From: Shigella phage ESh24
Sequence record: ON528734
Reading direction: 5' to 3' (one strand)
Length of the DNA stretch: 64,000 bases
Below are positions 445-58,596 of the stretch, piece after piece. Below the pieces are notes generated by a model. That model worked only from the letters and a program-made list of their open reading frames with translations, ran no database searches and had not been told where the DNA came from. How positions within the stretch are numbered: position 1 is the first letter of the stretch; each line of letters opens with the position of its first letter. A program made the position numbers and the translations under genes.

Positions 445-801
445 ATGTATAGTTCTGAATTTTCATATTTAAAAATGGAAAAAATTTCATACGATTTTAT
501 AGATGAAAAGGTTTATTATAGTTTCCATGAACCACGTTTTAATAGTGAGGTTGGGTTTATTGTAGTAAAAGACAATTTTATTTTAAAAATATATTCAGCA
601 TTAAAGGATTTTCATTACGAAAATATTAACCTAAAATTTAATAAAGAAAACGTTCGTAATTGCGCAGTAACAATTACAGGAAATAAAGGTACATGTGTTA
701 TGCTATCTGATGAAATTAATGATTTGCTAAATGATGCAGAAAATATTACTGCGCCATCTATTGATGACCAAATTTTTAATGCTTTTATGAATAGAGGTTA
801 A
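445..801 (+). CDS. hypothetical protein (61.2-position ORF)
   Basis: 118-aa ORF tightly packed between sp and primase; AT-rich phage codon usage. Confidence 0.5.
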   Translation: MYSSEFSYLKMEKISYDFIDEKVYYSFHEPRFNSEVGFIVVKDNFILKIYSALKDFHYENINLKFNKENVRNCAVTITGNKGTCVMLSDEINDLLNDAENITAPSIDDQIFNAFMNRG

Positions 802-2285: not shown

Positions 2286-3625
<1,340 letters not shown>

Positions 3626-3685
3626 TTGCTTACATATTCAAATGATATAATTATTTAACTTATTAATGAATTGAAAGGAAAAATA

Positions 3686-4204
3686 ATGGCTCACTTTAAT
3701 GAATGTTCACAACTGATCGAAGGCGCTGATAAAGCTCAAAATGAATATTGGGATATTCTCGGTGATGAAAAAGACCCGCTGCAGGTTATGCTTGACATGC
3801 AGAAATCTTTGCAGGTTCGTTTAGCTAAAGATAAACCTGAATATAACCGTCATCCTGATGATTTGGCTACTGCAGGTGAAGTTGTTGATTGGCTGCGTAA
3901 TCAGAAAGATTATATTGACGATGAATTCCGTGAACTTCTGACTTCTCTTGGTGGTATGAGTAATGGTGAAAAAGACGCATCTGCTGTATGGAAACCTTGG
4001 AAGTCGCAGCATGGTGAACGTCGTGAAACTCTGATTACTGATTTGTCTCCACAGGACCAGTTAGAAATCAAATTCGAAATGATTGATATTCTCCATTTTG
4101 TTCTGAACATGTTTCAAGGTCTTGGTCTTACAGCAGAAGAAATCTTTAAACTTTATTATCTGAAAAATGCTGAAAATTTCGCTCGTCAAGACCGAGGTTA
4201 TTAA
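3686..4204 (+). CDS. 56: dCTPase/dUTPase gp56 (MazG-like)
   Basis: ATG at 3686 with RBS AAAGGA; 171 aa; sequence recalled as T4 gp56. Confidence 0.85.
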   Translation: MAHFNECSQLIEGADKAQNEYWDILGDEKDPLQVMLDMQKSLQVRLAKDKPEYNRHPDDLATAGEVVDWLRNQKDYIDDEFRELLTSLGGMSNGEKDASAVWKPWKSQHGERRETLITDLSPQDQLEIKFEMIDILHFVLNMFQGLGLTAEEIFKLYYLKNAENFARQDRGY

Positions 4205-4234
4205 CAGCTCGTCTTAAAAGCCGCGAGAATTTAT

Positions 4235-13868: not shown

Positions 13869-14045
13869 ATGCCAATGTATGATTATAAATGCCAATCCGA
13901 AGATTGCGGGCATGAATATGAAAAAATTAAAAAGATTTCTGAACGAGAAAATGATGTTTGCCCTAAATGTCATCGTTTGTCTACTCGTCGGCCTTCTGCT
14001 CCTAAGCATGTGAATGGTGGTTTTTACGACTTACTTAAAGGGTGA
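13869..14045 (+). CDS. zinc-ribbon small protein
   Basis: 58 aa with CxxC...CxxC (CQSEDC ... CPKC); below track cutoff. Confidence 0.4.
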   Translation: MPMYDYKCQSEDCGHEYEKIKKISERENDVCPKCHRLSTRRPSAPKHVNGGFYDLLKG

Positions 14046-14047
14046 TT

Positions 14048-14419
14048 ATGTTTAAAATCGGTAAGAAATATCGTATTCGCGAAGGCGAAGAAAAGAAATA
14101 TCTAATGTCTGCTATTTATAGGAATGGTTCTATTAATGCTGTAATATCTACAAGCGAATTTATCGTTGAAGATATGAAAGGTAATAATGTTACAATGATT
14201 AGTACAGCATCTGGAAATGATGGAAAAATTCTTCACAGTTTTCAGAGTAATGTTCTAATTTATGATGAAGAATTTGACTTCTTCGAAGAAGTTCCTGAAG
14301 ATTTTGATTTTGAATGCACCATCACTATGAAATCTGGTGACCCTCTTTCTTTTACAGTTAAAGATGAAAGAAGCCGTTTAAGAATTATTAGTCTCCTTCA
14401 AGCCATTAAATTTGAGTGA
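14048..14419 (+). CDS. hypothetical protein
   Basis: 124 aa from ATG 14048. Confidence 0.5.
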   Translation: MFKIGKKYRIREGEEKKYLMSAIYRNGSINAVISTSEFIVEDMKGNNVTMISTASGNDGKILHSFQSNVLIYDEEFDFFEEVPEDFDFECTITMKSGDPLSFTVKDERSRLRIISLLQAIKFE

Positions 14420-14423
14420 AATT

Positions 14424-14684
14424 ATGAAATATGTTAATCGTTCTATCGCGGCATTAGTATTAGCAGTATCTTTAGTAGGATGTACTGATGCTGATAATGC
14501 AACCAAAGTTTTGTCTTCAAGTGGTTTTACTAATATTGAAATCACTGGATACAATTGGTTCGGTTGTTCTGAAAATGATTTCCAACATACTGGATTTCGT
14601 GCTATTGGACCTACTGGGCAGAAAGTAGAAGGAACAGTATGTTCTGGTCTGTTCTTTAAGGATTCAACTATTCGTTTTAAATAA
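14424..14684 (+). CDS. putative lipoprotein
   Basis: signal peptide plus lipobox LVGC. Confidence 0.5.
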   Translation: MKYVNRSIAALVLAVSLVGCTDADNATKVLSSSGFTNIEITGYNWFGCSENDFQHTGFRAIGPTGQKVEGTVCSGLFFKDSTIRFK

Positions 14685-14703
14685 AAGGCCTTCGGGCCTT
14701 TAG
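14685..14703 (+). terminator. intrinsic terminator hairpin
   Basis: AAGGCCTTCGGGCCTT + T. Confidence 0.6.
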
Positions 14704-14726
14704 CTTTATGATTACCGGAGTATAAT
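14700..14726 (+). promoter_or_regulatory. candidate MotA-dependent middle promoter for gene 39
   Basis: Mot-box-like AGCTTTA 12 bp upstream of TATAAT. Confidence 0.4.
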
Positions 14727-14753
14727 ATTCCCGAAACCAAACGAGGATAAGTG

Positions 14754-16571
14754 ATGATTAAGAATGAAATTAAAATTCTGAGCGATATTGAACATATCAA
14801 AAAGCGTAGTGGCATGTATATTGGCTCTTCTGCTAATGAAATGCATGAGCGCTTTCTGTTTGGTAAATGGGAAAGTGTTCAGTATGTACCTGGTCTTGTT
14901 AAGCTTATTGATGAAATTATCGATAACTCAGTAGATGAAGGTATTCGTACTAAGTTTAAATTCGCGAATAAAATTAATGTTACCATTAAAAATAATCAGG
15001 TAACAGTTGAAGATAACGGTCGCGGTATTCCACAAGCGATGGTTAAAACACCTACCGGTGAAGAAATTCCTGGTCCAGTTGCTGCTTGGACTATTCCAAA
15101 AGCAGGTGGTAACTTTGGCGATGATAAAGAACGTGTCACCGGTGGTATGAATGGTGTTGGTTCTAGTTTGACAAACATTTTTTCTGTGATGTTTGTCGGT
15201 GAAACTGGCGATGGTCAAAATAATATTGTAGTTCGTTGTTCAAATGGCATGGAAAATAAATCATGGGAAGATATTCCTGGAAAATGGAAAGGAACTCGTG
15301 TTACTTTCATTCCAGATTTTATGTCATTTGAAACTAATGAGCTGTCCCAAGTTTATCTTGACATTACACTGGATCGTCTCCAGACGCTTGCTGTAGTTTA
15401 TCCTGATATTCAATTTACCTTTAATGGTAAAAAGGTTCAGGGCAATTTTAAGAAATATGCACGACAGTATGATGAGCATGCTATTGTTCAAGAACAAGAA
15501 AATTGTTCTATTGCGGTTGGTCGTTCACCGGATGGATTTCGTCAATTAACTTACGTGAATAACATTCATACTAAGAATGGTGGCCATCACATTGATTGTG
15601 TTATGGATGATATTTGTGAAGACCTTATTCCACAAATCAAACGTAAGTTCAAAATTGATGTCACTAAAGCACGTGTCAAAGAATGTTTGACTATCGTTAT
15701 GTTTGTCCGTGATATGAAAAACATGCGATTTGACTCTCAAACTAAAGAACGACTTACTTCTCCATTTGGCGAAATTCGTAGTCATATTCAACTTGATGCT
15801 AAAAAGATTTCACGTGCTATTTTAAATAATGAAGCAATTTTAATGCCAATTATTGAAGCTGCTTTGGCTCGTAAATTGGCGGCAGAAAAAGCAGCAGAAA
15901 CTAAAGCAGCTAAAAAGGCTTCTAAAGCTAAAGTTCATAAACATATTAAAGCGAATCTTTGTGGTAAAGATGCTGACACTACATTGTTCTTAACCGAGGG
16001 TGATTCAGCTATCGGATATCTTATTGATGTTCGCGATAAAGAACTTCATGGCGGTTATCCATTGCGTGGTAAAGTTCTTAATAGCTGGGGTATGTCATAT
16101 GCCGATATGCTTAAAAACAAAGAACTATTTGATATTTGCGCAATCACTGGATTGGTTCTTGGTGAAAAAGCTGAAAACTTGAATTATCATAATATTGCTA
16201 TTATGACCGATGCTGACCATGATGGTCTAGGAAGCATTTATCCTTCTCTTCTTGGATTTTTTAGTAATTGGCCAGAACTGTTTGAGCAAGGAAGAATTCG
16301 CTTTGTCAAAACTCCTGTAATCATCGCTCAGGTCGGTAAAAAACAAGAATGGTTTTATACAGTCGCTGAATATGAGAGTGCCAAAGATGCTCTACCTAAA
16401 CATAGCATCCGTTATATTAAGGGACTTGGCTCTTTGGAAAAATCTGAATATCGTGAGATGATTCAGAACCCAGTATATGATGTTGTTAAACTTCCTGAGA
16501 ACTGGAAAGAGCTTTTTGAAATGCTCATGGGAGATAATGCTGACCTTCGTAAAGAATGGATGAGCCAGTAG
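14754..16571 (+). CDS. 39: DNA topoisomerase II large subunit gp39, fused form (ATPase plus Toprim region; no separate gene 60)
   Basis: 605 aa continuous ORF with GyrB-like ATPase motifs and Toprim region; T4 has split 39+60. Confidence 0.9.
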   Translation: MIKNEIKILSDIEHIKKRSGMYIGSSANEMHERFLFGKWESVQYVPGLVKLIDEIIDNSVDEGIRTKFKFANKINVTIKNNQVTVEDNGRGIPQAMVKTPTGEEIPGPVAAWTIPKAGGNFGDDKERVTGGMNGVGSSLTNIFSVMFVGETGDGQNNIVVRCSNGMENKSWEDIPGKWKGTRVTFIPDFMSFETNELSQVYLDITLDRLQTLAVVYPDIQFTFNGKKVQGNFKKYARQYDEHAIVQEQENCSIAVGRSPDGFRQLTYVNNIHTKNGGHHIDCVMDDICEDLIPQIKRKFKIDVTKARVKECLTIVMFVRDMKNMRFDSQTKERLTSPFGEIRSHIQLDAKKISRAILNNEAILMPIIEAALARKLAAEKAAETKAAKKASKAKVHKHIKANLCGKDADTTLFLTEGDSAIGYLIDVRDKELHGGYPLRGKVLNSWGMSYADMLKNKELFDICAITGLVLGEKAENLNYHNIAIMTDADHDGLGSIYPSLLGFFSNWPELFEQGRIRFVKTPVIIAQVGKKQEWFYTVAEYESAKDALPKHSIRYIKGLGSLEKSEYREMIQNPVYDVVKLPENWKELFEMLMGDNADLRKEWMSQ

Positions 16572-16600
16572 TTTACTTTACCACAAGGATGTGGTATAAT
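16571..16600 (+). promoter_or_regulatory. T4-type early promoter
   Basis: GTTTAC 16571-16576, TGGTATAAT 16592-16600. Confidence 0.55.
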
Positions 16601-16626
16601 TAATTTGGGCAAATGAGGATATTGAA

Positions 16627-16830
16627 ATGAAATCATATAAAGTAAATTTAGAACTTTTTGATAAAGCAGTTCATCGAGAATATAGAATCATTCAACGCTT
16701 TTTCGATATGGGAGAAGCCGAAGAATTTAAAAACCGCTTTAAAGATATTAGAGATAAAATTCAATCCGACACCGCAACTAAAGATGAATTACTAGAAGTT
16801 GCTGAAGTTATTAAGCGTAATATGAATTAA
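16627..16830 (+). CDS. hypothetical protein (rIIA.1 position)
   Basis: 67-aa ORF. Confidence 0.45.
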
Positions 16831-16840
16831 TGAGGAAATT

Positions 16841-19018
16841 ATGATTATCACCACTGAAAAAGAAACAATTCTTGGTAATGGTTCTAAATCAAAAGCATTT
16901 AGCATCACAGCATCTCCTAAAGTATTTAAAATTCTGTCATCTGATTTATATACAAACAAAATTCGCGCAGTAGTCCGTGAATTGATTACCAACATGATTG
17001 ATGCCCATGCTCTCAATGGAAATCCTGAAAAATTTATCATTCAAGTTCCTGGACGTTTAGATCCACGATTTGTTTGCCGAGATTTTGGTCCAGGTATGAG
17101 TGATTTTGATATTCAGGGTGATGATAATTCTCCTGGTTTGTATAATTCATACTTCAGTTCATCTAAGGCTGAATCTAACGATTTCATTGGCGGATTTGGT
17201 TTAGGTTCTAAATCTCCGTTTAGTTATACTGATACATTTAGTATTACTTCATATCATAAAGGCGAAATTCGTGGTTATGTAGCTTACATGGATGGTGATG
17301 GTCCGCAAATTAAACCTACATTCGTAAAAGAAATGGGTCCAGACGATAAAACTGGTATTGAAATCGTAGTTCCAGTTGAAGAAAAAGATTTTAGAAACTT
17401 TGCTTATGAAGTTTCTTATATCATGCGACCATTCAAAGATTTGGCTATCATTAATGGCCTTGACCGCGAAATTGATTATTTTCCGGATTTTGATGACTAT
17501 TACGGTGTAAATCCAGAAAGATACTGGCCTGATCGCGGCGGATTATATGCTATCTATGGCGGTATTGTTTATCCTATCGATGGTGTTATTAGAGACCGTA
17601 ATTGGCTAAGCATTCGCAATGAAGTGAATTACATTAAGTTTCCAATGGGTTCACTGGATATTGCTCCATCACGCGAAGCTCTTTCACTGGACGATCGCAC
17701 TCGCAAAAATATTATTGAACGAGTTAAAGAGCTTAGTGAAAAGGCATTCAATGAAGATGTAAAACGATTTAAAGAATCTACATCTCCTCGTCACACATAT
17801 CGTGAATTGATGAAGATGGGGTATTCTGCTCGAGATTATATGATTAGTAATTCGGTCAAATTCACGACTAAAAATCTGTCATATAAAAAGATGCAGAGCA
17901 TGTTTGAACCTGACAGTAAGTTATGTAATGCAGGAGTTGTGTATGAAGTAAATCTTGACCCTCGACTGAAACGCATTAAGCAAAGTCATGAAACTTCAGC
18001 CGTTGCATCAAGTTATCGTCTGTTTGGTATTAATACAACAAAAATTAATATCGTTATTGATAATATTAAAAATCGTGTTAATATTGTCCGTGGATTAGCA
18101 CATGCGCTAGATGATAGTGAATTTAATAACACTTTAAATATTCATCACAATGAGCGTCTTCTGTTTATTAATCCGGAAGTAGAATCGCAGATTGATTTAC
18201 TACCTGATATTATGGCAATGTTTGAAAGTGATGAAGTTAACATTCATTATTTGTCAGAAATTGAAGCTTTAGTTAAAAGCTATATTCCAAAGGTAGTTAA
18301 AAGTAAAGCTCCTCGTCCTAAAGCTGCTACAGCATTTAAGTTTGAAATTAAAGATGGGCGTTGGGAAAAAGAGGAATTATTTACACTTACGTCAGAAGCA
18401 GATGAAATTACTGGTTATGTAGCGTATATGCATCGTTCTGATATTTTCTCTATGGATGGTACTACATCACTTTGTCATCCATCTATGAATATTTTGATTC
18501 GTATGGCTAATCTTATTGGTATTAATGAATTTTATGTTATTCGTCCGCTTTTGCAGAAAAAGGTAAAAGAGCTTGGTCAGTGCCAATGTATTTTTGAAGC
18601 TTTACGTGATTTATATGTAGATGCTTTTGATGATGTAGATTATGATAAGTATGTAGGTTATTCAAGTTCAGCTCAACGATATATTGATAAAATTATCAAG
18701 TATCCTGAACTAGATTTTATGATGAAGTACTTCAGTACAGATGAAGTTTCTGAAGAATATACACGACTTGGTAATATGGTTAGTTCATTACGCGGTGTGT
18801 ATTTTAATGGTGGAAAAGATACCATCGGTCATGATATCTGGACAGTAACTAATCTCTTTGATGAATTATCACGTAATGCTTCAAAAAATAGTGATAAAAT
18901 GGTTGCTGAGTTTACCAAGAAATTCCGTATTGTTTCTGACTTCATCGGTTATCGCAGCTCTTTAAGTGATGATGAAGTTTCCCAAATCGCTAAAACTATG
19001 AAGGCCCTTGCGGCCTAA
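16841..19018 (+). CDS. rIIA: rIIA protein (lysis inhibition / Rex exclusion determinant)
   Basis: 725 aa, exact T4 rIIA length, followed by rIIB. Confidence 0.9.
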
Positions 19019-27982: not shown

Positions 27983-28762
27983 TTAAATCCAGGAACCATA
28001 GATCGTGCCTGTTGCACCCCATGATGGCGAAGAACCGAATACCGCTCTACCTGGAGCACCACCGCCGGATCTAGATAAGTGATTACCCCATCCATCTCCA
28101 CCCCGACCTCCAGCATCACCGCCATTGCCACCGCCAAATTGACTTGTATTACCACCGCCGCCTGGACCGTCATAACTAGCATTGCCACCAGGCCAATTAA
28201 CACCACCGCCACCGAGACCAAATGGTCTGCCACCGCCACCACCAGCTGTAGCATACGCGTCCCAGCTATTCTTTAACGACACTGCACCACCGCCACCGCC
28301 GCCTGATGCAATAACGCCATAGTTCCAAATGCGGAGTCGTCCACCAATATCATTTTGGATTACGTCGCCACCATTAGTGCCTGGGCTTCCATTTACGCTA
28401 CCATTACCACCTCGGCCCCACATATGAACACCACCATGAATATTCAAAGTAACATATTCGTTAGGAGTATCACCATACATGAAGAATAAAGGAACGTCTT
28501 TAGAATATGATACTAAGTTGCCTGTGATATTAAACACTATAGGAGCGCCACCGGCTTCAAAACAACGGTCACGGAACCATTGACCATTAAAGTTATGGTC
28601 TGCTCCAAGAGTGTGAATAATTTCTCTTGAACGTCCAGCGAATTGTGACATCCAAGATGGGTTCCCTAGACGTAATTCTCTAGAAGCTGCTGACATCCAA
28701 CGTTGACCTGTTTCAGCCACTGCTGATGTTCCAATCCAACCAGGTATTCCTACTACTGCCAT
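27983..28762 (-). CDS. 38: gp38 receptor-recognising adhesin (T2-type, glycine-rich motifs)
   Basis: 259 aa; conserved N-terminal region then poly-Gly blocks ([30 protein letters not shown]) separating variable segments. Confidence 0.8.
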
Positions 28763-28773
28763 AAAAACCTCCA

Positions 28774-28789
28774 GGGCCCGAAGGCCCTT
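28774..28789 (-). terminator. hairpin between genes 37 and 38 (attenuator-like), immediately before the gp38 RBS
   Basis: AGGGCCCGAAGGCCCT in the 30-bp gap between gp37 stop and gp38 start. Confidence 0.45.
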
Positions 28790-28792
28790 TTA

Positions 28793-31700
28793 TTATTTTA
28801 TCAATGATTTAATTAATGCTTTCAACTCAGCAATTTCAGATTTCAATTCCTTGATTTCGTCAGTATGCTCGTTGATAGTGGCAGTATTTAAACCAATAAT
28901 ACCGTTATAGTTCAAACGAAGCAGTCCGGTCTCTTTATCTTCAGAAACAAGTTCAGGAAATACTTTTTGAACTTCCTGGGCGATTAAACCGGCGGACGGT
29001 TTAACTTCATCAGTAACGGGGTTTTTAAGCAGATAAGTATAACCACCTAAGAGTTTAGATTTCTCTTGTGCGTTATCGATAAGCTTAATTTCCGATTTAC
29101 AACGAATATCAGAACGAATATAAACGTCGTTAACGTCAATGTTATCGCGAACATACATACCGGCGTTACAGTGGAAGTTAACGTTACTAAAGGTCTGGGC
29201 CAGCCCAGCTCGAATACTGAATACACCTTGACCATTAGCATACATGTTGTAGATGCCATCGCTTTCCCAGACCAATCCAGTGTCATTGTCACCAATTGCT
29301 ATGCATGGCGTAGACCAAGCGGGTTCAATACCTACACCAATACCCGCCCAACCGGAAACAATTCTTCCTGGGGAAGTAAACTGCCCGTTGGCCAAAAATT
29401 GATAAACCGCTGCAGGATGTCCTTGTTCTGGTGTATTTTCAGTTGAACGAACAATTATACAACCGGTACCCCAACCTGCGGTACCTGAACGTAAAGTACC
29501 TAGCTCTACACTTGTGTTATATCCATACCCCGTTGAAGAACTTCGTCCTTTAATAATAGGATAGTACACATTCCCGTTTAATTCGCCATGTTCTACAAAT
29601 ATAGGAGCTTCAAGGTTATATTGTAGGCTAATCATACCTGAGTTTTGAGAGACCCATCTTGTAGCATTAACGTACATACGGTTTTCACTCATTTGAACCA
29701 AGCCAAAAGCGCTTGGGCTAAATGTAATGGCGCCAGCGTCATTCAAATCAATACCGGTTGTTGTTTTATAGTTGTAAAAAGATACTGTGTCAGATTGGCC
29801 ACCTTTACCAACAAACCAACTATTAGCACCACCAACTTCTGAACGAATATGCGAACTATTAATTGCATTAGGTGCTCTAATTACTAAAGCATCATCGGCC
29901 GCAGCAATAGTTAATTTTCCGGTCATCGTATCGCCTTCTTTGGCAATACGAGTAGCTATTGCATCGCGAATATTTGTAATGTCTCCTGCTGAAGTAAACG
30001 TTTTCCAAATATCCGAGAAAATATTACCATTACGAGCAATAGCAGCTTCGCCACCGCCGACCAGAACGTTATCGGGAAAATTAACGGTACCATCGGCGTT
30101 AAATCTTGATGTATGGCCTTGTGAACCATCTTCTTTGATATGGTGTAAAACAAATGTACCCGAATTAATTTCAGTACCTAAAGACCAAACAGCTTTACTG
30201 TTTAAAAACTTCTGTTTAACAATAGGATAATATTTACTTACTGCGTCATCATCGATTTCCTGGAAAATAGGAGCTGCTTGAACATATTGAATATCATAAC
30301 CACCAGCGCCCGCGCCGTGACCAGTAAATTTAATATAACCGTTTGCTGCGAACGTATTGTAACTTGATTGTAAATCTGGAATAGTAACTTTACCAGTATC
30401 TAAAGCCATACTAAACGGGCGAAGTGGACCGATATCGCCGTGTTTACCTTCACCGTAAGCAGTTGGAATAATATGAAGACTACCTTCTGAACGTCTAAAA
30501 ATGGCTCCATAATCTGCGTTCCAAATACGAAGCGCATTCACTGCTCCAGATGAAATTTCACCTGTTGTGTGAACTCCTCTATCTCCAGCAGTAACACCAG
30601 ATGATTCAAATGAACCATTAACGTTCATTTCTACTTCGCCAGTAGTAAGTCTTTGAATATAGCTCATCCAGCTAGTTGCATCAGAAATTTCCATAATGTT
30701 TTTACGGATACCTCCGCTTGGATCAACAAACGTATTACCCCAAACTTTAATATCCATATTATCAACCGAGCTGTATCCTGTTGTGTTGCCTCTAAACATT
30801 AGTGTAGAAGAATTATTTCTACCATCTATATTAACAGAACCGCCAATAACGTCAATATTACCAGGAGTAACTAACAAACCGCCGTGAGTATTAATGTTTG
30901 TAGTACCCTTACCGCGGAAATAATGATGATAATTACCACCTTGATAATATCCTAAAAGAGTTTGACCGTCGCCGTATGCGTTATTATCGTGGTATGTTAC
31001 TACAGTAGCAAGAGCATAGTTTTCTGTCGGTGGCGTTGTCATAAGAATCCCATCCGGAGAATAACCCATAACCATTTTTCTAAGGCTTTGTGTTTCCGCA
31101 GGACCGTAAATGAAAGTTCTTGTTCCGTTGTTTACTGTATGAAAATATCCGTCCTGGTGCCATTTTAGCCCGGTATCATTATCACCAAGAGCAATCGAAG
31201 CAGTCCCTAATTCAGAATATCCTTTAGAGCCACCCGGAAGACCTATAGAAATAGAATGGCCTGCTTTCAATCCACCGGCCCAGTTAAACGACCAAAGATA
31301 AGTGTCTAAGCCATCTCCGGAATACCAGGTTATTCCGTCATTAACATTAACTTCGTGGAAAATACCTGCTCCTACAGCATTTCGCATAACACGTAGGTGG
31401 TTAATAGCCGTTTCGCCTTCTGCCATTGGAGTGTTATTTGATAATGAATAGATATCATAATCGCCTGTCTTCTTCCCGTTTGTAATAACTTTGTCGGTCA
31501 GAATTTGTGGAGACGAAATAGATTTCCATGCTGATACTTCAGGTGAAGTAAATAGGCCACTGCCTGAAAATGCATAAGTGCTTTCGCTACCAGCGGCGTA
31601 GTCTTGAACCCTGATATTAAGTACTTGTGTAGTTAAACCATCATTAGCCGGGGCATAAATGATTCCACGTTCGCGACTATTGCCATCGAAAAAACGAACA

Positions 31701-32059
31701 TGCGCTGTACCTGAACTTTTTGTAATAAGTTCTCCGCCTTCAGTCATAATCTGCCCAGCAGCAATAATATCACGAGTTACTCGAGCAATACCAGTTAAAT
31801 TAAAATTACCAGTCTGGGTGAATGTACCGTTTAAAGTATAATCACCAGTTTGGTTATAATTGCCTTTATGAATAACATTCCCGTCAATACTACCGCCTTT
31901 AGCAAAACCTAAATCAATAATATTTCCCTGGTCATCTTTAGTAAAAAGTACACGGTCTTTTAAGTTTATAGCCAATTCACCTTCGGCTAATACTGAAGCA
32001 GCTGGACGTTGACCTGCCGTTTTGCTTCTTTTAAATTGTATTTGTTTTAAAGTAGCCAT
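28793..32059 (-). CDS. 37: long tail fibre distal subunit gp37 with C-terminal intramolecular-chaperone-like domain
   Basis: 1088 aa; conserved N-terminus MATLKQIQFKRSKTAGQRPAAS; C-terminal SDIRCK...coiled-coil tail. Confidence 0.9.
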   Translation of the reverse strand: MATLKQIQFKRSKTAGQRPAASVLAEGELAINLKDRVLFTKDDQGNIIDLGFAKGGSIDGNVIHKGNYNQTGDYTLNGTFTQTGNFNLTGIARVTRDIIAAGQIMTEGGELITKSSGTAHVRFFDGNSRERGIIYAPANDGLTTQVLNIRVQDYAAGSESTYAFSGSGLFTSPEVSAWKSISSPQILTDKVITNGKKTGDYDIYSLSNNTPMAEGETAINHLRVMRNAVGAGIFHEVNVNDGITWYSGDGLDTYLWSFNWAGGLKAGHSISIGLPGGSKGYSELGTASIALGDNDTGLKWHQDGYFHTVNNGTRTFIYGPAETQSLRKMVMGYSPDGILMTTPPTENYALATVVTYHDNNAYGDGQTLLGYYQGGNYHHYFRGKGTTNINTHGGLLVTPGNIDVIGGSVNIDGRNNSSTLMFRGNTTGYSSVDNMDIKVWGNTFVDPSGGIRKNIMEISDATSWMSYIQRLTTGEVEMNVNGSFESSGVTAGDRGVHTTGEISSGAVNALRIWNADYGAIFRRSEGSLHIIPTAYGEGKHGDIGPLRPFSMALDTGKVTIPDLQSSYNTFAANGYIKFTGHGAGAGGYDIQYVQAAPIFQEIDDDAVSKYYPIVKQKFLNSKAVWSLGTEINSGTFVLHHIKEDGSQGHTSRFNADGTVNFPDNVLVGGGEAAIARNGNIFSDIWKTFTSAGDITNIRDAIATRIAKEGDTMTGKLTIAAADDALVIRAPNAINSSHIRSEVGGANSWFVGKGGQSDTVSFYNYKTTTGIDLNDAGAITFSPSAFGLVQMSENRMYVNATRWVSQNSGMISLQYNLEAPIFVEHGELNGNVYYPIIKGRSSSTGYGYNTSVELGTLRSGTAGWGTGCIIVRSTENTPEQGHPAAVYQFLANGQFTSPGRIVSGWAGIGVGIEPAWSTPCIAIGDNDTGLVWESDGIYNMYANGQGVFSIRAGLAQTFSNVNFHCNAGMYVRDNIDVNDVYIRSDIRCKSEIKLIDNAQEKSKLLGGYTYLLKNPVTDEVKPSAGLIAQEVQKVFPELVSEDKETGLLRLNYNGIIGLNTATINEHTDEIKELKSEIAELKALIKSLIK

Positions 32060-39396: not shown

Positions 39397-40046
39397 TTAA
39401 ACTCCGCATGCCTGCTGGTGGTGAAAGATACATTGATGGTAAATCAGTTTATAAATTATACTTAATGATAAAACAACATATGAATGGAAAATATGATGTT
39501 ATTAAGTACAATTGGTGCATGCGGGTGTCTGATGCCGCTTATCAAAAGCGAAGGGATAAGTATTTTTTCCAGAAGTTATCAGAAAAATATAAATTAAAGG
39601 AACTTGCTTTAATCTTTATAAGCAATTTGGTTGCTAACCAAGATGCTTGGATTGGTGACATCTCTGACGCTGATGCACTTGTGTTTTATCGTGAATATAT
39701 CGGACGCTTAAAGCAAATTAAATTTAAGTTTGAAGAAGATATTCGCAACATTTATTATTTTAGTAAAAAAGTTGAAGTTTCTGCTTTTAAAGAAATCTTT
39801 GAATATAATCCAAAGGTTCAATCAAGTTATATTTTTAAACTGCTTCAGTCGAATATAATTTCGTTTGAAACGTTTATCTTGCTTGATTCGTTTTTAAATA
39901 TAATTGATAAACATGATGAACAGACTGATAATTTAGTTTGGAACAATTATTCTATAAAGTTAAAGGCTTATAGAAAAATTTTAAATATTGATTCACAGAA
40001 AGCTAAAAGTGTTTTCATTGAAACTGTGAAATCTTGCAAGTATTAA
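39393..40046 (+). CDS. 59: helicase loader gp59
   Basis: 217 aa, T4 gp59 length, upstream of gene 32. Confidence 0.85.
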   Translation: MIKLRMPAGGERYIDGKSVYKLYLMIKQHMNGKYDVIKYNWCMRVSDAAYQKRRDKYFFQKLSEKYKLKELALIFISNLVANQDAWIGDISDADALVFYREYIGRLKQIKFKFEEDIRNIYYFSKKVEVSAFKEIFEYNPKVQSSYIFKLLQSNIISFETFILLDSFLNIIDKHDEQTDNLVWNNYSIKLKAYRKILNIDSQKAKSVFIETVKSCKY

Positions 40047-40145
40047 TTGCTTATTATAAATAGATTATAATTATCTCACTGACCAGCTATGAGGTCATAC
40101 ATCGTCATAGCACCAACTGTTAATTAAATTAAAAAGGAAATAAAA
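40047..40145 (+). promoter_or_regulatory. gene 32 translational operator (pseudoknot plus unstructured A/U-rich tract)
   Basis: TGACC AGCTATGA GGTCA ... TCATAGC pseudoknot-forming repeats, then AATTAAATTAAAAAGGAAATAAAA before ATG. Confidence 0.65.
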
Positions 40146-42996: not shown

Positions 42997-43344
42997 ATGA
43001 ATTTTAATTATTACCCTATTCTATTAGAAAAAGATGATAAGCAGCCAAAGTGGCAGGGTCCTCAGTTTATTAAAGGCGTCTATCAATTAGTAGTTCCTAA
43101 AGACAAGATTTATAGCAGTTGTTTCACTGAATCCGCCTGCAGTATTTTCGGTAATAGTTCTCCGTATTGGAATTTTGACATAAAGCTGGATAGAAATATC
43201 GATATTTGGTTGAAAGCTATGGATATTGGTAATATCACGTTTGATGAGAATAATTATCATATTATTGGTCGCTTTTCCAAACGCGGTAAAGAATTGTATT
43301 TCACACCTGAAATTGAAAGAAAATTTGATGCTAAACCGTATTGA
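42997..43344 (+). CDS. hypothetical protein inserted between frd and td
   Basis: 115-aa ORF; in T4 frd and td overlap (recalled), so this ORF occupies an extra slot. Confidence 0.5.
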   Translation: MNFNYYPILLEKDDKQPKWQGPQFIKGVYQLVVPKDKIYSSCFTESACSIFGNSSPYWNFDIKLDRNIDIWLKAMDIGNITFDENNYHIIGRFSKRGKELYFTPEIERKFDAKPY

Positions 43345-43387: not shown

Positions 43388-43936
43388 ATGAAACAATACC
43401 AAGATTTAATTAAAGACATTTTTGAAAATGGCTATGAAACCGATGACCGAACAGGCACAGGAACAATTGCTTTGTTTGGTACTAAATTACGCTGGGATTT
43501 AACTAAAGGTTTTCCTGCAGTAACAACTAAGAAGCTCGCTTGGAACGCATGTATTGCTGAGCTTCTATGGTTTATTTCCGGTTCTACCAATGTTAATGAT
43601 TTACGTCTTCGTACTCATGGTAGTCTTATTCAAGGTAAAACTATCTGGGATGACAATTATGAAAACCAAGCTAAAGACCTAGGATATCATAGTGGTGAAC
43701 TTGGTCCAATTTATGGAAAACAGTGGCGTGATTTCGGTGGTGTGGATCAATTAGTTGAAACTATTGATCGTATTAAAAAATTACCAACTGATCGACGTCA
43801 AATCGTTTCAGCATGGAATCCAGCTGAAATCAATCAAATGGCATTACCGCCCTGTCATATGTTCTATCAGTTTAATGTGCGTAATGGCTATTTAGATTTG
43901 CAGTGGTATCAACGATCAGTAGATGTTTTCTTGGGT
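43388..43936 (+). CDS. td: thymidylate synthase, exon 1
   Basis: TS N-terminal domain; exon ends ...TTGGGT before intron TAATTGAGGCCTGAGTATAAGG. Confidence 0.9.
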
Positions 43937-44952
43937 TAATTGAGGCCTGAGTATAAGGTGACTTATACTTGTAATCTATCTAAACGGGGAACCTCTCTAG
44001 TAGACAATCCCGTGCTAAATTGTAGGACTGCCCTTTAATAAATACTTCTATATTTAAAGAGGTATTTATGAAAAGCGGAATTTATCAGATTAAAAATACT
44101 TTAAACAATAAAGTATATGTAGGAAGTGCTAAAGATTTTAAAAAGAGATGGAAGAGGCATTTTAAAGATTTAGAAAAAGGATGCCATTCTTCTATAAAAC
44201 TTCAGAGGTCTTTTAACAAACACGGTAATGTGTTTGAATGTTCTATTTTGGAAGAAATTCCATATGAGAAAGATTTGATTATTGAACGAGAAAATTTTTG
44301 GATTAAAGAGCTTAATTCTAAAATTAATGGATACAATATTGCTGATGCAACGTTTGGTGATACATGTTCTACACATCCATTAAAAGAAGAAATTATTAAG
44401 AAACGTTCTGAAACTGTTAAAGCTAAGATGCTTAAACTTGGACCTGATGGTCGGAAAGCTCTTTACAGTAAACCCGGAAGTAAAAACGGGCGTTGGAATC
44501 CAGAAACCCATAAGTTTTGTAAGTGCGGTGTTCGCATACAAACTTCTGCTTATACTTGTAGTAAATGCAGAAATCGTTCAGGTGAAAATAATTCATTCTT
44601 TAATCATAAGCATTCAGACATAACTAAATCTAAAATATCAGAAAAGATGAAAGGTAAAAAGCCTAGTAATATTAAAAAGATTTCATGTGATGGGGTTATT
44701 TTTGATTGTGCAGCAGATGCAGCTAGACATTTTAAAATTTCGTCTGGATTAGTTACTTATCGTGTAAAATCTGATAAATGGAATTGGTTCTACATAAATG
44801 CCTAACGACTATCCCTTTGGGGAGTAGGGTCAAGTGACTCGAAACGATAGACAACTTGCTTTAACAAGTTGGAGATATAGTCTGATCTGCATGGTGACAT
44901 GTAGCTGGATATAATTCCGGGGTAAGATTAACGACCTTATCTGAACATAATG
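43937..44952 (+). mobile_element. td group I intron (1016 nt) carrying I-TevI
   Basis: 5' intron sequence matches the T4 td intron as recalled; 1016-nt length equals T4 td intron; exon 2 resumes in frame. Confidence 0.9.
44068..44805 (+). CDS. I-TevI: GIY-YIG homing endonuclease I-TevI
   Basis: 245 aa; GIYQIKNTLNNKVYVGS GIY-YIG motif, Zn finger, C-terminal DNA-binding domain. Confidence 0.9.
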   Translation: MKSGIYQIKNTLNNKVYVGSAKDFKKRWKRHFKDLEKGCHSSIKLQRSFNKHGNVFECSILEEIPYEKDLIIERENFWIKELNSKINGYNIADATFGDTCSTHPLKEEIIKKRSETVKAKMLKLGPDGRKALYSKPGSKNGRWNPETHKFCKCGVRIQTSAYTCSKCRNRSGENNSFFNHKHSDITKSKISEKMKGKKPSNIKKISCDGVIFDCAADAARHFKISSGLVTYRVKSDKWNWFYINA

Positions 44953-45264
44953 CTACCATTTAATATTGCATCATATGCTGCGTTAGTTCATATTGTAGCT
45001 AAGATGTGTAATCTTATTCCTGGAGATTTGATATTTTCTGGCGGTAATACTCATATCTATATGAATCATGTGGAACAATGTAAAGAAATTTTACGTCGTG
45101 AACCTATGGATTTATGCGAATTGCAATTAAAATTTCCAGATGAATTTGATGAATGGGACACAGAATCGCAGGTATTTTGGTTGAGTCAATTCGCAAAGCC
45201 GCATAATTTTGTTCTTAACAACTATGAATCACACCCTTCTATTAAAGGAAAGATGGCGGTGTAA
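44953..45264 (+). CDS. td: thymidylate synthase, exon 2
   Basis: continues [15 protein letters not shown]...; joined product 286 aa. Confidence 0.9.
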
Positions 45265-45284
45265 TTTTATTATTGCGAGGATAT

Positions 45285-45548
45285 ATGATTTTACGATTTA
45301 AAGATACTTCTGGTGTCGTTCTTTTTACACTTCCTAATCCAAGCGAGTTAGAAGTTCCAGGACCAAATCAGCCTATTATCATTTATGGCAAAAAATATTA
45401 TACTCATAAAATGACTCGTGAGTATTTTGATAATAAAATTTCTACAGTTAAAACTTCTTCAGATTGTTACTATGATATTACTGTTTTAACGGAAAAACAA
45501 TATGACGAATTATCACCGCGCGGGCCGTCTATGCCAGGTAGTGAATAA
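45285..45548 (+). CDS. hypothetical protein (nrdA.2 position)
   Basis: 87 aa from ATG 45285. Confidence 0.45.
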
Positions 45549-45828
45549 ATATAAATCCGACTTTGATGTTAATATTCACCGTGGTACATTTTGGGGAAAT
45601 TACGTCGGTAAAGATGCTGGCAGCCGGGAGGCTGCCATTGAATTATTCAAAAAAGATTTTATACGTCGAATTAAATCCGGAGAAATAACTAAAGCACATT
45701 TAGAGCCTTTACGTGGAATGAGGCTAGGATGCACATGTAAACCAAAGCCGTGTCATGGTGATATAATAGCTCATATAGTTAACCGATTGTTTAAAGACGA
45801 TTTTCAAGTTGAGGACTTATGCAATTAA
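45502..45828 (+). CDS. hypothetical protein (nrdA.1 position)
   Basis: 108-aa ORF overlapping neighbours. Confidence 0.45.
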
Positions 45829-48083
45829 TTAATGTTATCAAAAGTAGTGGTGTTTCTCAGAGCTTTGACCCGCAAAAAATTATTAAAGTTTTATCTTGGG
45901 CAGCTGAAGGAACATCAGTCGATCCTTATGAATTATATGAAAATATTAAATCATATCTCCGTGATGGAATGACAACTGATGATATTCAGACTATTGTCAT
46001 TAAGGCCGCTGCGAATTCTATTTCAGTTGAAGAGCCTGATTATCAATACGTAGCCGCGCGCTGTTTAATGTTTGCTCTTCGTAAGCATGTTTATGGGCAG
46101 TATGAACCACGTTCATTTATTGACCATATTTCTTACTGTGTAAATGAAGGTAAATATGACCCTGAATTATTGTCAAAATATTCAGCAGAAGAAATTACAT
46201 TTTTAGAATCAAAAATTAAGCACGAGCGGGATATGGAATTTACTTATTCCGGGGCGATGCAATTAAAAGAAAAATATCTCGTTAAAGATAAAACTACTGG
46301 TCAAATTTATGAAACTCCACAGTTTGCATTTATGACTATTGGAATGGCACTGCATCAAGATGAACCTGTTGATAGATTAAAACATGTTATTCGTTTTTAT
46401 GAAGCAGTATCTACTCGACAGATTTCATTGCCAACTCCTATTATGGCTGGTTGTCGTACTCCGACTCGACAGTTTAGTTCATGCGTTGTTATTGAGGCAG
46501 GTGATTCATTGAAGTCTATCAATAAGGCTTCCGCTTCAATTGTTGAATATATCTCTAAACGCGCTGGAATTGGTATTAACGTTGGTATGATTCGTGCCGA
46601 AGGTTCTAAGATTGGCATGGGTGAAGTACGCCATACCGGTGTTATTCCTTTTTGGAAACATTTTCAGACTGCTGTTAAATCATGTTCACAGGGTGGAATT
46701 CGTGGCGGCGCTGCTACTGCTTATTATCCTATTTGGCATTTGGAAGTTGAAAATCTTCTCGTTTTGAAAAATAACAAAGGTGTAGAAGAAAACCGCATTC
46801 GTCATATGGATTATGGTGTTCAGCTGAATGATTTGATGATGGAACGTTTTGGAAAGAACGATTACATTACTTTGTTCAGTCCGCATGAAATGGGTGGCGA
46901 GCTTTATTATTCTTATTTTAAAGATCAAGACCGTTTCCGTGAATTATACGAAGCTGCAGAAAAAGACCCTAATATTCGTAAAAAGCGTATTAAAGCCCGT
47001 GAACTGTTTGAATTGCTTATGACTGAACGCTCAGGAACAGCAAGGATTTATGTGCAGTTCATTGATAATACGAATAACTATACTCCGTTTATTCGTGAAA
47101 AGGCACCTATTCGCCAGAGTAACTTGTGCTGTGAAATTGCTATTCCAACAAATGATGTGAATAGTCCTGATGCTGAAATTGGCTTGTGTACTCTCTCTGC
47201 ATTCGTACTAGATAATTTTGACTGGCAAGACCAAGATAAAATTAATGAATTAGCAGAAGTTCAAGTTCGTGCTCTTGATAATCTTTTGGATTACCAAGGA
47301 TATCCAGTTCCTGAAGCAGAAAAAGCTAAAAAGCGTCGTAACCTCGGTGTAGGTGTTACTAACTATGCAGCTTGGCTGGCAAGTAACTTTGCTTCTTATG
47401 AAGATGCTAACGATTTAACACATGAACTATTTGAGAGATTACAGTATGGACTCATTAAAGCATCCATTAAGCTCGCCAAAGAAAAAGGACCTTGCGAATA
47501 TTATTCAGACACTCGTTGGTCTCGAGGCGAATTACCTATCGACTGGTACAATAAAAAGATTGACCAAATCGCAGCTCCAAAATACGTTTGTGACTGGTCG
47601 TCGCTGCGGGAAGACCTTAAGCTCTTTGGCATCCGTAATAGCACATTATCAGCACTTATGCCATGTGAGTCATCTTCCCAAGTTTCTAACAGTACAAACG
47701 GTATCGAGCCTCCACGTGGACCAGTCTCTGTTAAAGAATCAAAAGAGGGCTCCTTTAATCAAGTCGTGCCCAATATTGAACATAACATAGACCTATATGA
47801 TTATACATGGAAATTAGCTAAGAAAGGTAATAAACCTTATCTTACGCAGGTAGCTATTATGCTGAAATGGGTATGTCAATCAGCTTCGGCGAATACATAT
47901 TATGACCCACAGATTTTTCCAAAAGGAAAGGTTCCAATGTCAATAATGATTGATGACCTTTTGTATTTTTGGTATTTTGGCGGAAAAAATTTCTATTATC
48001 ATAATACCCGTGATGGTTCTGGTACTGATGATTATGAAATAGAAACTCCTAAAGCTGAAGATTGTTCATCCTGTAAATTATGA
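45819..48083 (+). CDS. nrdA: aerobic ribonucleotide reductase large subunit NrdA
   Basis: 754 aa with ATP-cone N-terminus and class I RNR catalytic motifs. Confidence 0.95.
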   Translation: MQLINVIKSSGVSQSFDPQKIIKVLSWAAEGTSVDPYELYENIKSYLRDGMTTDDIQTIVIKAAANSISVEEPDYQYVAARCLMFALRKHVYGQYEPRSFIDHISYCVNEGKYDPELLSKYSAEEITFLESKIKHERDMEFTYSGAMQLKEKYLVKDKTTGQIYETPQFAFMTIGMALHQDEPVDRLKHVIRFYEAVSTRQISLPTPIMAGCRTPTRQFSSCVVIEAGDSLKSINKASASIVEYISKRAGIGINVGMIRAEGSKIGMGEVRHTGVIPFWKHFQTAVKSCSQGGIRGGAATAYYPIWHLEVENLLVLKNNKGVEENRIRHMDYGVQLNDLMMERFGKNDYITLFSPHEMGGELYYSYFKDQDRFRELYEAAEKDPNIRKKRIKARELFELLMTERSGTARIYVQFIDNTNNYTPFIREKAPIRQSNLCCEIAIPTNDVNSPDAEIGLCTLSAFVLDNFDWQDQDKINELAEVQVRALDNLLDYQGYPVPEAEKAKKRRNLGVGVTNYAAWLASNFASYEDANDLTHELFERLQYGLIKASIKLAKEKGPCEYYSDTRWSRGELPIDWYNKKIDQIAAPKYVCDWSSLREDLKLFGIRNSTLSALMPCESSSQVSNSTNGIEPPRGPVSVKESKEGSFNQVVPNIEHNIDLYDYTWKLAKKGNKPYLTQVAIMLKWVCQSASANTYYDPQIFPKGKVPMSIMIDDLLYFWYFGGKNFYYHNTRDGSGTDDYEIETPKAEDCSSCKL

Positions 48084-48134
48084 TATAATTTGACTCATGG
48101 ACGAGTCACTATCTATTAACTAAGTGGAAAATTT

Positions 48135-48810
48135 ATGAGCACAGTTTTTAATACAAATCCAGTTGATGTTTTAAAAGAACCTATGTTTTTTGGTTCAGGT
48201 CTTGGTATTGCGCGTTATGATATTCAGCGGCATCGAGTATTTGAAGAACTTACTGAGAAGTCTTTATCATTTTTCTGGCGTCCTGAAGAAGTAAACTTAA
48301 TGATGGATGCTGCGCAATTTAATAAGCTTCCTCAGTATCAGCAAAATATTTTTACTAATAACCTGAAGTATCAATCACTTTTGGATAGCATTCAGGGTCG
48401 TGCGCCATCTGCTGTACTTATGTCATTAATTTCAGACCCGAGTCTTGATACATGGGTTGCTACATGGACTTTTAGTGAAACTATTCACAGTCGTTCATAT
48501 ACACATATCATGCGAAATCTTTATACTGATCCATCGAAGGTATTTGATGAGATTGTATTAGATGAAGCTATTATGAAACGCGCTGAATCCATTGGACGTT
48601 ATTATGATGATGTTCTGATTAAAACCCGTGAATGGGAAAATGCTAAAGAATTTGTAGAACTAGCTAAAGAATCTCCTGATGCCGACTTTCGTTTAAACAG
48701 GGCTATTAAACAAGAAGCCGAAGCTAAACGCGCTTTAATGAAATCTCTTTACCTCTGTTTACACGTTATTAATGCCTTAGAAGCTATTCGTTTTTATGTA
48801 TCTTTTGCGT
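48135..48810 (+). CDS. nrdB: ribonucleotide reductase small subunit NrdB, exon 1
   Basis: RNR R2 fold; exon ends ...YVSFA plus first base of Cys codon. Confidence 0.85.
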
Positions 48811-49895
48811 AAAATGCGCCTTTAAACGGTAACGTTTATCGAAAACTCCTTTAATTGCTGGAAAGTCCTTTATAGGAAAACTAGCAGCCAAGGTTTTGCT
48901 TGCACCTTTAATTAGTATAATATGATTATACTTTTAAGAGGATGCACAATTGAACTATAGAAAAATTTGGATAGATGCTAACGGACCTATACCTAAAGAT
49001 TCTGATGGAAGAACATACGAAATCCATCATAAAGACGGTAACCGTGAAAATAATGATTTAGATAATTTGATGTGCCTTTCTATACAGGAACATTATGATA
49101 TACATTTAGCTCAAAAAGATTACCAGGCTTGTCATGCTATAAAGCTTAGAATGAAATATTCTCCTGAAGAAATTTCTGAATTAGCTTCTAAAGCCGCAAA
49201 ATCTAGAGAAATCCAGATTTTTAATATCCCTGAAGTACGAGCTAAAAATATTGCCTCTATTAAATCTAAGATAGAAAATGGTACATTTCATCTTTTAGAC
49301 GGTGAAATACAGCGTAAATCTAATTTAAATAGAGTTGCATTAGGTATACATAATTTTCAACAAGCTGAGCATATTGCAAAAGTTAAAGAACGCAATATTG
49401 CAGCTATAAAAGAAGGTACTCATGTATTTTGCGGTGGTAAAATGCAGTCAGAAACTCAATCAAAACGGGTAAATGACGGTTCACATCATTTCTTGTCAGA
49501 AGACCATAAGAAAAGAACATCAGCAAAAACATTAGAAATGGTTAAGAACGGGACCCATCCTGCACAAAAAGAAATCACATGTGATTTCTGCGGTCACATT
49601 GGTAAAGGTCCTGGATTTTATCTAAAACATAATGACAGATGTAAATTAAATCCAAATAGAATTCAATTGAATTGTCCATATTGTGATAAGAAAGATTTAT
49701 CACCATCAACATATAAACGATGGCACGGCGACAATTGCAAAGCAAGGTTCAACGACTAGTCTTCGGACGTAGGGTCAAGCGACTCGAAATGGGGAGAATC
49801 CCTCTGGGATTGTGATATAGTCTGGTCTGCATAGTAATATGTAGCAGTTCATAAGAGAACGGGTTGAGAATTAGCGAGCTCAATCGAACATAACG
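48811..49895 (+). mobile_element. nrdB group I intron (about 1085 nt) carrying I-TevIII-like ORF
   Basis: boundaries inferred from restoring NrdB frame (...SFA-C-TFNFHKNMEIMEGNAK...); 5' splice after U, intron ends in G. Confidence 0.7.
48950..49759 (+). CDS. I-TevIII: HNH homing endonuclease I-TevIII-like (full length)
   Basis: 269 codons; HNH motif EIHHKDGNRENNDLDNL, C-terminal Zn fingers; ORF begins at TTG, no in-frame ATG nearby. Confidence 0.65.
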   Translation: MNYRKIWIDANGPIPKDSDGRTYEIHHKDGNRENNDLDNLMCLSIQEHYDIHLAQKDYQACHAIKLRMKYSPEEISELASKAAKSREIQIFNIPEVRAKNIASIKSKIENGTFHLLDGEIQRKSNLNRVALGIHNFQQAEHIAKVKERNIAAIKEGTHVFCGGKMQSETQSKRVNDGSHHFLSEDHKKRTSAKTLEMVKNGTHPAQKEITCDFCGHIGKGPGFYLKHNDRCKLNPNRIQLNCPYCDKKDLSPSTYKRWHGDNCKARFND

Positions 49896-50398
49896 GTACC
49901 TTTAACTTCCATAAGAACATGGAAATCATGGAAGGTAATGCCAAGATTATGAAGTTCATTGCACGCGATGAACAGCTTCACCTTAAAGGCACCCAATATA
50001 TTATTCGTCAGCTTCAATCCGGTACTGATGGTGATGAATGGGTTAAAATTGCCAAAGAGTGTGAACAAGAAGCAGTTGATATTTTCATGGAAGTTAACCG
50101 CCAAGAAAAAGATTGGGCAGTTCATTTATTTAAAGATGGCGATGTTCCTGGATTAAATACAAATAGCATGTGGAGCTTTATTGATTACTTAACTGTATCT
50201 CGTATGAAACAGTGTGGTCTTCCATGCCCGATTACCGATGCTCCGGTTAAACATCCATATCCTTGGATTCGTGAATACCTTAATTCTGATAATGTTCAAT
50301 CCGCGCCGCAAGAAGTAGAACTGTCATCTTATCTTGTTGCACAGATTGATAATGATGTTGATGATAAAGTTATGATGAGTTTTAAAAAATACTTTTAA
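49896..50398 (+). CDS. nrdB: ribonucleotide reductase small subunit NrdB, exon 2
   Basis: in-frame continuation; joined product about 392 aa. Confidence 0.85.
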
Positions 50399-58546: not shown

Positions 58547-58596
58547 CTTACACAAACAAAAGAAAAGGGCTTCGGCCCCTTACTGAGGAAAATATT

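Follow-up and report, generated by a model that had tools for sequence, protein, structure and literature searches.

Does Shigella phage ESh24 (record ON528734) encode the large subunit of its DNA topoisomerase in one gene or in two, and what does the answer say about the ancestry of the phage? The type II topoisomerase has two subunits in T2 and T6, and three in T4 (PMC11461880). A stretch of 64,000 nucleotides of the ESh24 genome, here called the window, was analysed with attention to the gene at 14754–16571. An earlier note on this DNA, made from the letters alone, had described the gene as unsplit, and had used this together with several other features to argue for a lineage. The features located in the analysis are collected in Table 1.

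Table 1 Features located in the window, in order of position
Feature	Position	Strand	Evidence
Empty site at the position of T4 segF, between gene 56 and soc	4165..4234	+	BLAST segment ends; no SegF by tblastn
GAGGA Shine-Dalgarno sequence, 6 nt 5' of the ATG of gene 39	14743..14747	+	read from sequence
Gene 39, uninterrupted; GyrB-like ATPase and TOPRIM large subunit of phage type IIA topoisomerase, 605 aa	14754..16571	+	ORF; alignment to T4 gp39 and gp60; RB3 gp39 605/605
GHKL ATPase domain, aa 47–149	14892..15200	+	Pfam HATPase_c, E 2e-9, 38.3 bits (cut-off 26.4)
GyrB transducer domain, aa 250–384	15501..15905	+	Pfam DNA_gyraseB, E 1.4e-13, 51.1 bits (cut-off 27)
TOPRIM metal-binding core in a single chain, EGDSA (aa 415–419) to DADHDG (aa 486–491)	15996..16226	+	motif positions
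Empty site, 64 in-frame bases in place of 1117 bp of T4 (3910–2794)	16172..16235	+	BLAST segment ends; codon view; four-phage alignment
TOPRIM-associated C-terminal domain, aa 519–604, equivalent to the body of T4 gp60	16308..16565	+	Pfam TOPRIM_C, E 4.2e-7, 30.7 bits (cut-off 29); gp60 alignment
Gene 52, GyrA-like partner subunit, 442 aa	22950..24278	+	differs from T4 gp52, and likewise from T6 gp52, at three residues
gp38 tail-fibre adhesin, 259 aa	27983..28762	-	Pfam GP38, E 9e-82, 274.6 bits; Gp38_N, 74.2 bits
Empty site at the position of T4 segG, between genes 59 and 32	40045..40082	+	BLAST segment ends; tblastn
td group I intron, 1016 nt, with I-TevI ORF at 44068–44805	43937..44952	+	exon mapping against intron-less T2 td
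Empty site between nrdA and nrdB, where T4 has mobE and nrdB.1	48080..48134	+	BLAST segment ends; tblastn
nrdB group I intron, 1085 nt, with full-length I-TevIII ORF at 48950–49759, 269 aa	48811..49895	+	exon mapping against intron-less T2 nrdB

The window and its relatives

The window has a G+C content of about 35%, and its + strand is the strand of the early genes of T4. In T4 coordinates it extends downwards from about 20186 and, passing the rIIA/rIIB origin, ends near 124764. It matches several hundred T4-like phages (Tequatrovirus) with a nucleotide identity of 95–97%. The alignment to T4, T2, T6 and RB3 that the earlier note had proposed gives about 95% for each of them over the whole window (95.3%, 95.4%, 94.9% and 95.6% respectively), and the local variation in identity along the window shows no preference for any of the four.

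When the window was searched by thirds, no sequenced phage was found that matches all of it. The best matches have identities of 94–96.5% and are different phages: vB_EcoM-CHD16UKE1 at 95.6% for the first third, EC128 at 94.2% over 94% of the query for the second, and AV121 at 96.5% for the last. Identity to one already sequenced phage from end to end, which the earlier note had raised as a possibility, is therefore not seen. Because no single phage matches throughout, the window is probably a mosaic Tequatrovirus without a sequenced counterpart, which is routine for the genus.

Gene 39 and its product

The earlier note had described a large subunit of 605 residues in one reading frame, carrying both the ATPase region and the C-terminal region that is equivalent to gene 60. 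This description is correct, as judged by the reading frame from the ATG at 14754 and by alignments to T4 gp39 and gp60. The list of open reading frames gives the frame as 14751..16571 (+), with a GTG start and 606 residues; starting at the ATG gives 605. Upstream of the gene there is a TATAAT at 14721–14726, and on the 3' side of the preceding reading frame a GGCC-TTCG-GGCC hairpin followed by TTT, at 14684–14701, both of these being read directly from the sequence.

The gene lies between 39.1 and rIIA.1, as it does in T2, T6 and RB3, each of which has a single CDS of 1818 nt annotated at the equivalent map position. The predicted protein is identical to gp39 of RB3 (YP_009098389.1; 605/605, 100%), and matches those of T2 and T6 at 604/605 (99.8%) and 603/605 (99.7%) respectively. 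Chance is far from sufficient to explain a reading frame of 1.8 kb that encodes a known protein residue for residue. All three relatives have a protein of the same length, with the same domains, and have the partner gene 52. At the nucleotide level there are 61–76 differences from the three genes (95.8–96.6% identity), nearly all of them synonymous: only 0–2 change an amino acid, a near-absence that indicates strong purifying selection on gene 39.

The domains listed in Table 1 are accompanied by recognisable motifs. The GHKL ATPase motifs are DNSVDE (residues 57–62) and GGMNGVG (residues 130–136). The two TOPRIM motifs are found in one polypeptide, whereas in T4 they are divided between gp39 and gp60. 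An alignment to the T6 Topo II structure (PDB 8ylu_C) covers residues 1–605. Further matches in the PDB are to Topo II alpha and beta, ParE and GyrB, with E values from 1e-59 to 1e-36. The cellular GyrB and ParE, and the N-terminal half of eukaryotic Topo II, have the same architecture of GHKL ATPase, transducer and TOPRIM, although they are distant from phage gp39 in sequence.

On this basis gp39, with its GHKL ATPase, transducer and complete TOPRIM, would combine with gp52 to form a two-subunit type IIA topoisomerase, as in T2 and T6. The phage topoisomerase relaxes DNA and does not supercoil it. T6 gp39 is active in vitro (PMC11461880), and the protein described here differs from it by two amino acids, from which we infer that the enzyme would carry out ATP-dependent relaxation of DNA. 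Its activity and the assembly of its subunits can be expected more generally from the near-identity to characterised proteins.

The site of the MobA insertion

The comparison with T4 locates precisely where the two genes differ. Residues 1–473 align without gaps to residues 1–473 of T4 gp39, with 98.5% identity. Residues 472–605 align to residues 27–160 of T4 gp60 with 95.5% identity, and from about residue 476 to 605 the sequence is near-identical to gp60 31–160. In the DNA, BLAST finds two segments of homology, matching 14682–16171 of the window to 5400–3911 of T4, and 16236–16880 to 2793–2150. The T4 segment that lies between these two contains the C-terminal extension of gp39, mobA/60.1, the N-terminal extension of gp60 and the coding gap of 50 nt. 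In the window its place is taken by the short in-frame sequence given in Table 1.

At the position of the T4 take-off site, the reading frame here is continuous, GAT GGT CTA GGA AGC, with the codon GGT and not GGA. In T4 the corresponding sequence is GAT GGA, followed by the 50-nt gap TAGCCTTCGGGCTATC...TTGGA, and then TTA GGT TCT. The T4 gap also comes with a stop codon next to the GGA and with a stem-loop, and the mobA of T4 is an HNH endonuclease gene lying within the sequence that codes for TOPRIM. The gap sequence was sought across the whole window, and its best ungapped match was 28 of 50 positions, which is the level expected by chance. A tblastn search of the window with gp60.1 and the MobA fragment gave no match, and the extensions derived from the cassette (residues 474–516 of T4 gp39 and 1–26 of gp60) have no counterpart in the window. 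No remnants of a hit-and-run type of cassette were found in gene 39. The statement of the earlier note that there is neither a gene 60 nor a translational bypass element is thus upheld, and the gene 60-like interruption that it had named as contrary evidence is absent from the alignment.

Around the T4 insertion site the sequence is very close to that of T2, with one synonymous difference in 16155–16249; the other differences in the displayed region 16150–16259 are found only at its ends. By inference from this comparison, gene 39 in this phage may be regarded as a naive target for MobA.

Empty sites and introns

The earlier note had reported segF and mobE, as well as mobA, to be missing. The ends of the BLAST segments mark an empty site in place of each, and tblastn agrees; segG is absent as well. 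Relocated copies of segF, segG, mobE, mobA/60.1 or a T4-type gp38 were sought throughout the window, and none was found.

The T4-type introns that the note had described as retained are indeed present, in td and nrdB. They were placed by exon mapping against T2 because Rfam gave only a match below threshold. At the gathering threshold Rfam has no matches in the whole window, and a permissive search over 43800–50000 found Intron_gpI in the nrdB intron (49604–49844, 33.9 bits as against a gathering threshold of 50) and none in td. The inserted reading frames probably break the covariance model. It can be added as an observation in its own right that phage group I introns containing reading frames escape routine Rfam annotation.

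Removal of the td intron joins exons 43388–43936 and 44953–45264 to give a Td of 286 residues, and removal of the nrdB intron joins 48135–48810 and 49896–50398 to give an NrdB of 392 residues. Both introns are at the splice sites used in T4, and the sequences of their 5' junctions are found exactly in T4. I-TevI has 245 residues, is 99.6% identical to that of T4, and contains the Pfam GIY-YIG and I-TevI domains. I-TevIII contains a Pfam HNH_3 domain, and the nrdB intron is 99.4% identical in nucleotides to that of RB3. The T4 nrdB intron carries a truncated I-TevIII and is accompanied by mobE, which mobilises it in trans (PMC2988022), whereas here I-TevIII is intact, as in RB3, and mobE is absent.

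At a coverage of at least 80%, 196 records have the td intron and 84 the nrdB intron. Both introns are 99.4–99.6% identical to those of many phages, as against about 95–97% for the surrounding backbone, and exon 1 of td is only 87.5% identical to that of T2. Such a pattern fits a recent horizontal spread of the introns, which may have been accompanied by co-conversion of the flanking exon.

gp38 and the tail-fibre tip

The gp38 of this phage had been called T2-type, which is correct as to its family. It is an adhesin, and it is not the T4 chaperone: T4 gp38, used as a tblastn query against the window, found no match. However, it is only 51% identical to T2 gp38, over the full length. The identity to T6 and RB3 gp38 is about 82%, in the N-terminal 150 residues only. 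Much closer are the adhesins of vB_EcoM-VR5, UGJNEcP3 and the Mosigvirus phage Shf125875 (95–97% identical), which suggests that the tail-fibre tip may have been exchanged across genera.

At the nucleotide level, neither T4 nor T2 matches the region 27983–31893 (-), made up of gp38 and the distal end of gene 37, and T6 and RB3 cover only about 17% of it.

Other reading frames that differ from T4

Several other reading frames distinguish the window from T4. At 445–801 (+), a reading frame of 118 residues (PHROG 4122) occupies the place of T4 gene 61.2. Its match to the Pfam family AdfA (anti-DarT factor A) is confined to the C-terminal half, at profile positions 113–211. T2 has a reading frame of equal length annotated there.

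A reading frame of 186 residues at 2286–2846 (+) ends at the start of dam (2846–3625). It sits in a stretch of about 540 bp that is absent from T4; coverage by bins suggests that this stretch is present in T2 and largely missing in T6 and RB3. The product belongs to PHROG 8706, of unknown function, and has a weak match, below the cut-off, to the Pfam DpnII (GATC) restriction endonuclease (E 0.0045). The position of this tentative match beside the gene for the GATC methylase dam is curious.

Between 39.2 and 39.1 there is a reading frame of 125 residues (14042–14419, +; PHROG 622), with a weak likeness to goF-like proteins. T4 has no counterpart, and T6 and RB3 have a reading frame of 372 nt annotated there. 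In T4 frd and td overlap, whereas here they are separated by a reading frame of 115 residues (42997–43344, +; PHROG 1928, function unknown); T2, T6 and RB3 have a 348-nt reading frame annotated in the same place. Lastly, about 790 bp of T4 (129475–130264, genes 30.7 and 30.8) have no counterpart at 58560–58567.

Affinities of the phage

The earlier note had concluded that the phage belongs to a T2/T6-like branch. As examined here, this account takes the unsplit gene 39, the adhesin gp38 and the lack of segF, mobA and mobE to mark a distinct T2/T6 lineage, which gained its T4-type introns secondarily. T2 and T6 do agree in having gene 39 unsplit and a gp38 of the adhesin family, and in lacking segF, and the horizontal spread proposed above for the introns, on the basis of their high identity, would be in keeping with a secondary gain. 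The backbone, however, gives the account no support, being equally near to all four phages: over the common part of gene 39, the identity is 96.1% to T4, 96.6% to T2, 95.8% to T6 and 96.5% to RB3. This is a star pattern without grouping, and the values for the whole window are similarly alike.

The characters themselves also argue against it. The states common to T2 and T6 are either the absence of mobile elements or the state found in the majority, and the lack of mobile endonuclease cassettes is the commoner condition rather than a shared derived character. The adhesin, as noted, is only 51% identical to that of T2. The combination of features, which had been thought worth noting for lineage assignment, is moreover already present in RB3 (unsplit gene 39, adhesin gp38, and both the td and nrdB introns) and, for the td intron, in T6 (with unsplit gene 39 and adhesin gp38). 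The T4 mobA cassette (2794–3910) is found in only 43 phage records, which implies that gene 39 is unsplit in most of the phages bearing the td intron; the intron must occur without the cassette in at least about 150 records (196 as against 43), an approximate figure, as a few records are partial. We consider it very unlikely that these features mark membership of a distinct T2/T6 lineage.

Very little weight is likewise given to the compound proposal that the phage is a Tequatrovirus without a sequenced counterpart, perhaps lying on or close to the 95% boundary between species, and that its gene 39 would be a naive MobA target or, less likely, the product of a scarless secondary restoration after loss of a bypass cassette.

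Origin of the unsplit gene

Records that match the region of gene 39 number 585, and 511 of them reach an identity of at least 80%. A preprint describes the MobA element as having inserted into a parental gene that was unsplit; in each clade some close relatives have the element and others lack it, and it is reported to home into T2 (bioRxiv 10.1101/2022.08.31.505936). mobA has similarly been placed among the endonucleases whose insertion split a gene relative to related phages (Edgell et al., PMC2988022). The absence of the split gene and of the ribosomal hop is ordinary, because the split is particular to T4 and a few relatives. An unsplit gene 39 is already known: it is what textbooks give for T2 and T6, and most of the T4-like phages sequenced have it.

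We conclude, with a probability of about 0.97, that 14754..16571 is a standard uninterrupted Tequatrovirus gene 39, which encodes a GyrB-like subunit of 605 residues, is conventionally translated, and is without the MobA cassette. No result of the analysis speaks against this. Translation would proceed conventionally from one reading frame because the genome either never acquired the MobA homing-endonuclease cassette or no longer carries it. In T4 and a minority of its relatives, the cassette splits the gene into 39 and 60 and brings with it the bypass element of 50 nt.

It is extremely improbable that the unsplit state is secondary, an ancestor having lost the MobA/bypass cassette through precise excision or, in a co-infection, through recombination with an unsplit allele. 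In favour of such a loss, the window is clearly mosaic through recombination, its best-matching phage differing from third to third; gene 39 is in its 3' part marginally nearer to T4 (98.5%) than to T2, T6 and RB3 (97.6–97.9%); and loss of the cassette with restoration of a single reading frame has been proposed for Aeromonas phages. Those phages, however, retained remnants of the extensions (bioRxiv 10.1101/2022.08.31.505936), whereas here the C- and N-terminal extensions that come with the cassette have left no trace. The protein is moreover collinear with that of RB3 and matches it at every residue, and the unsplit gene is the state of the large majority (43 records with the cassette, as against 585 that match the gene region).

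The standard, uninterrupted gene 39 matters little as a finding in itself, the protein being identical to one already deposited. Its value is for annotation: the gene should be entered as one CDS of 605 residues from 14754, and needs neither a gene 60 nor a bypass feature. For the T-even group as a whole, the presence or absence of homing-endonuclease cassettes is unfit for the assignment of lineage.
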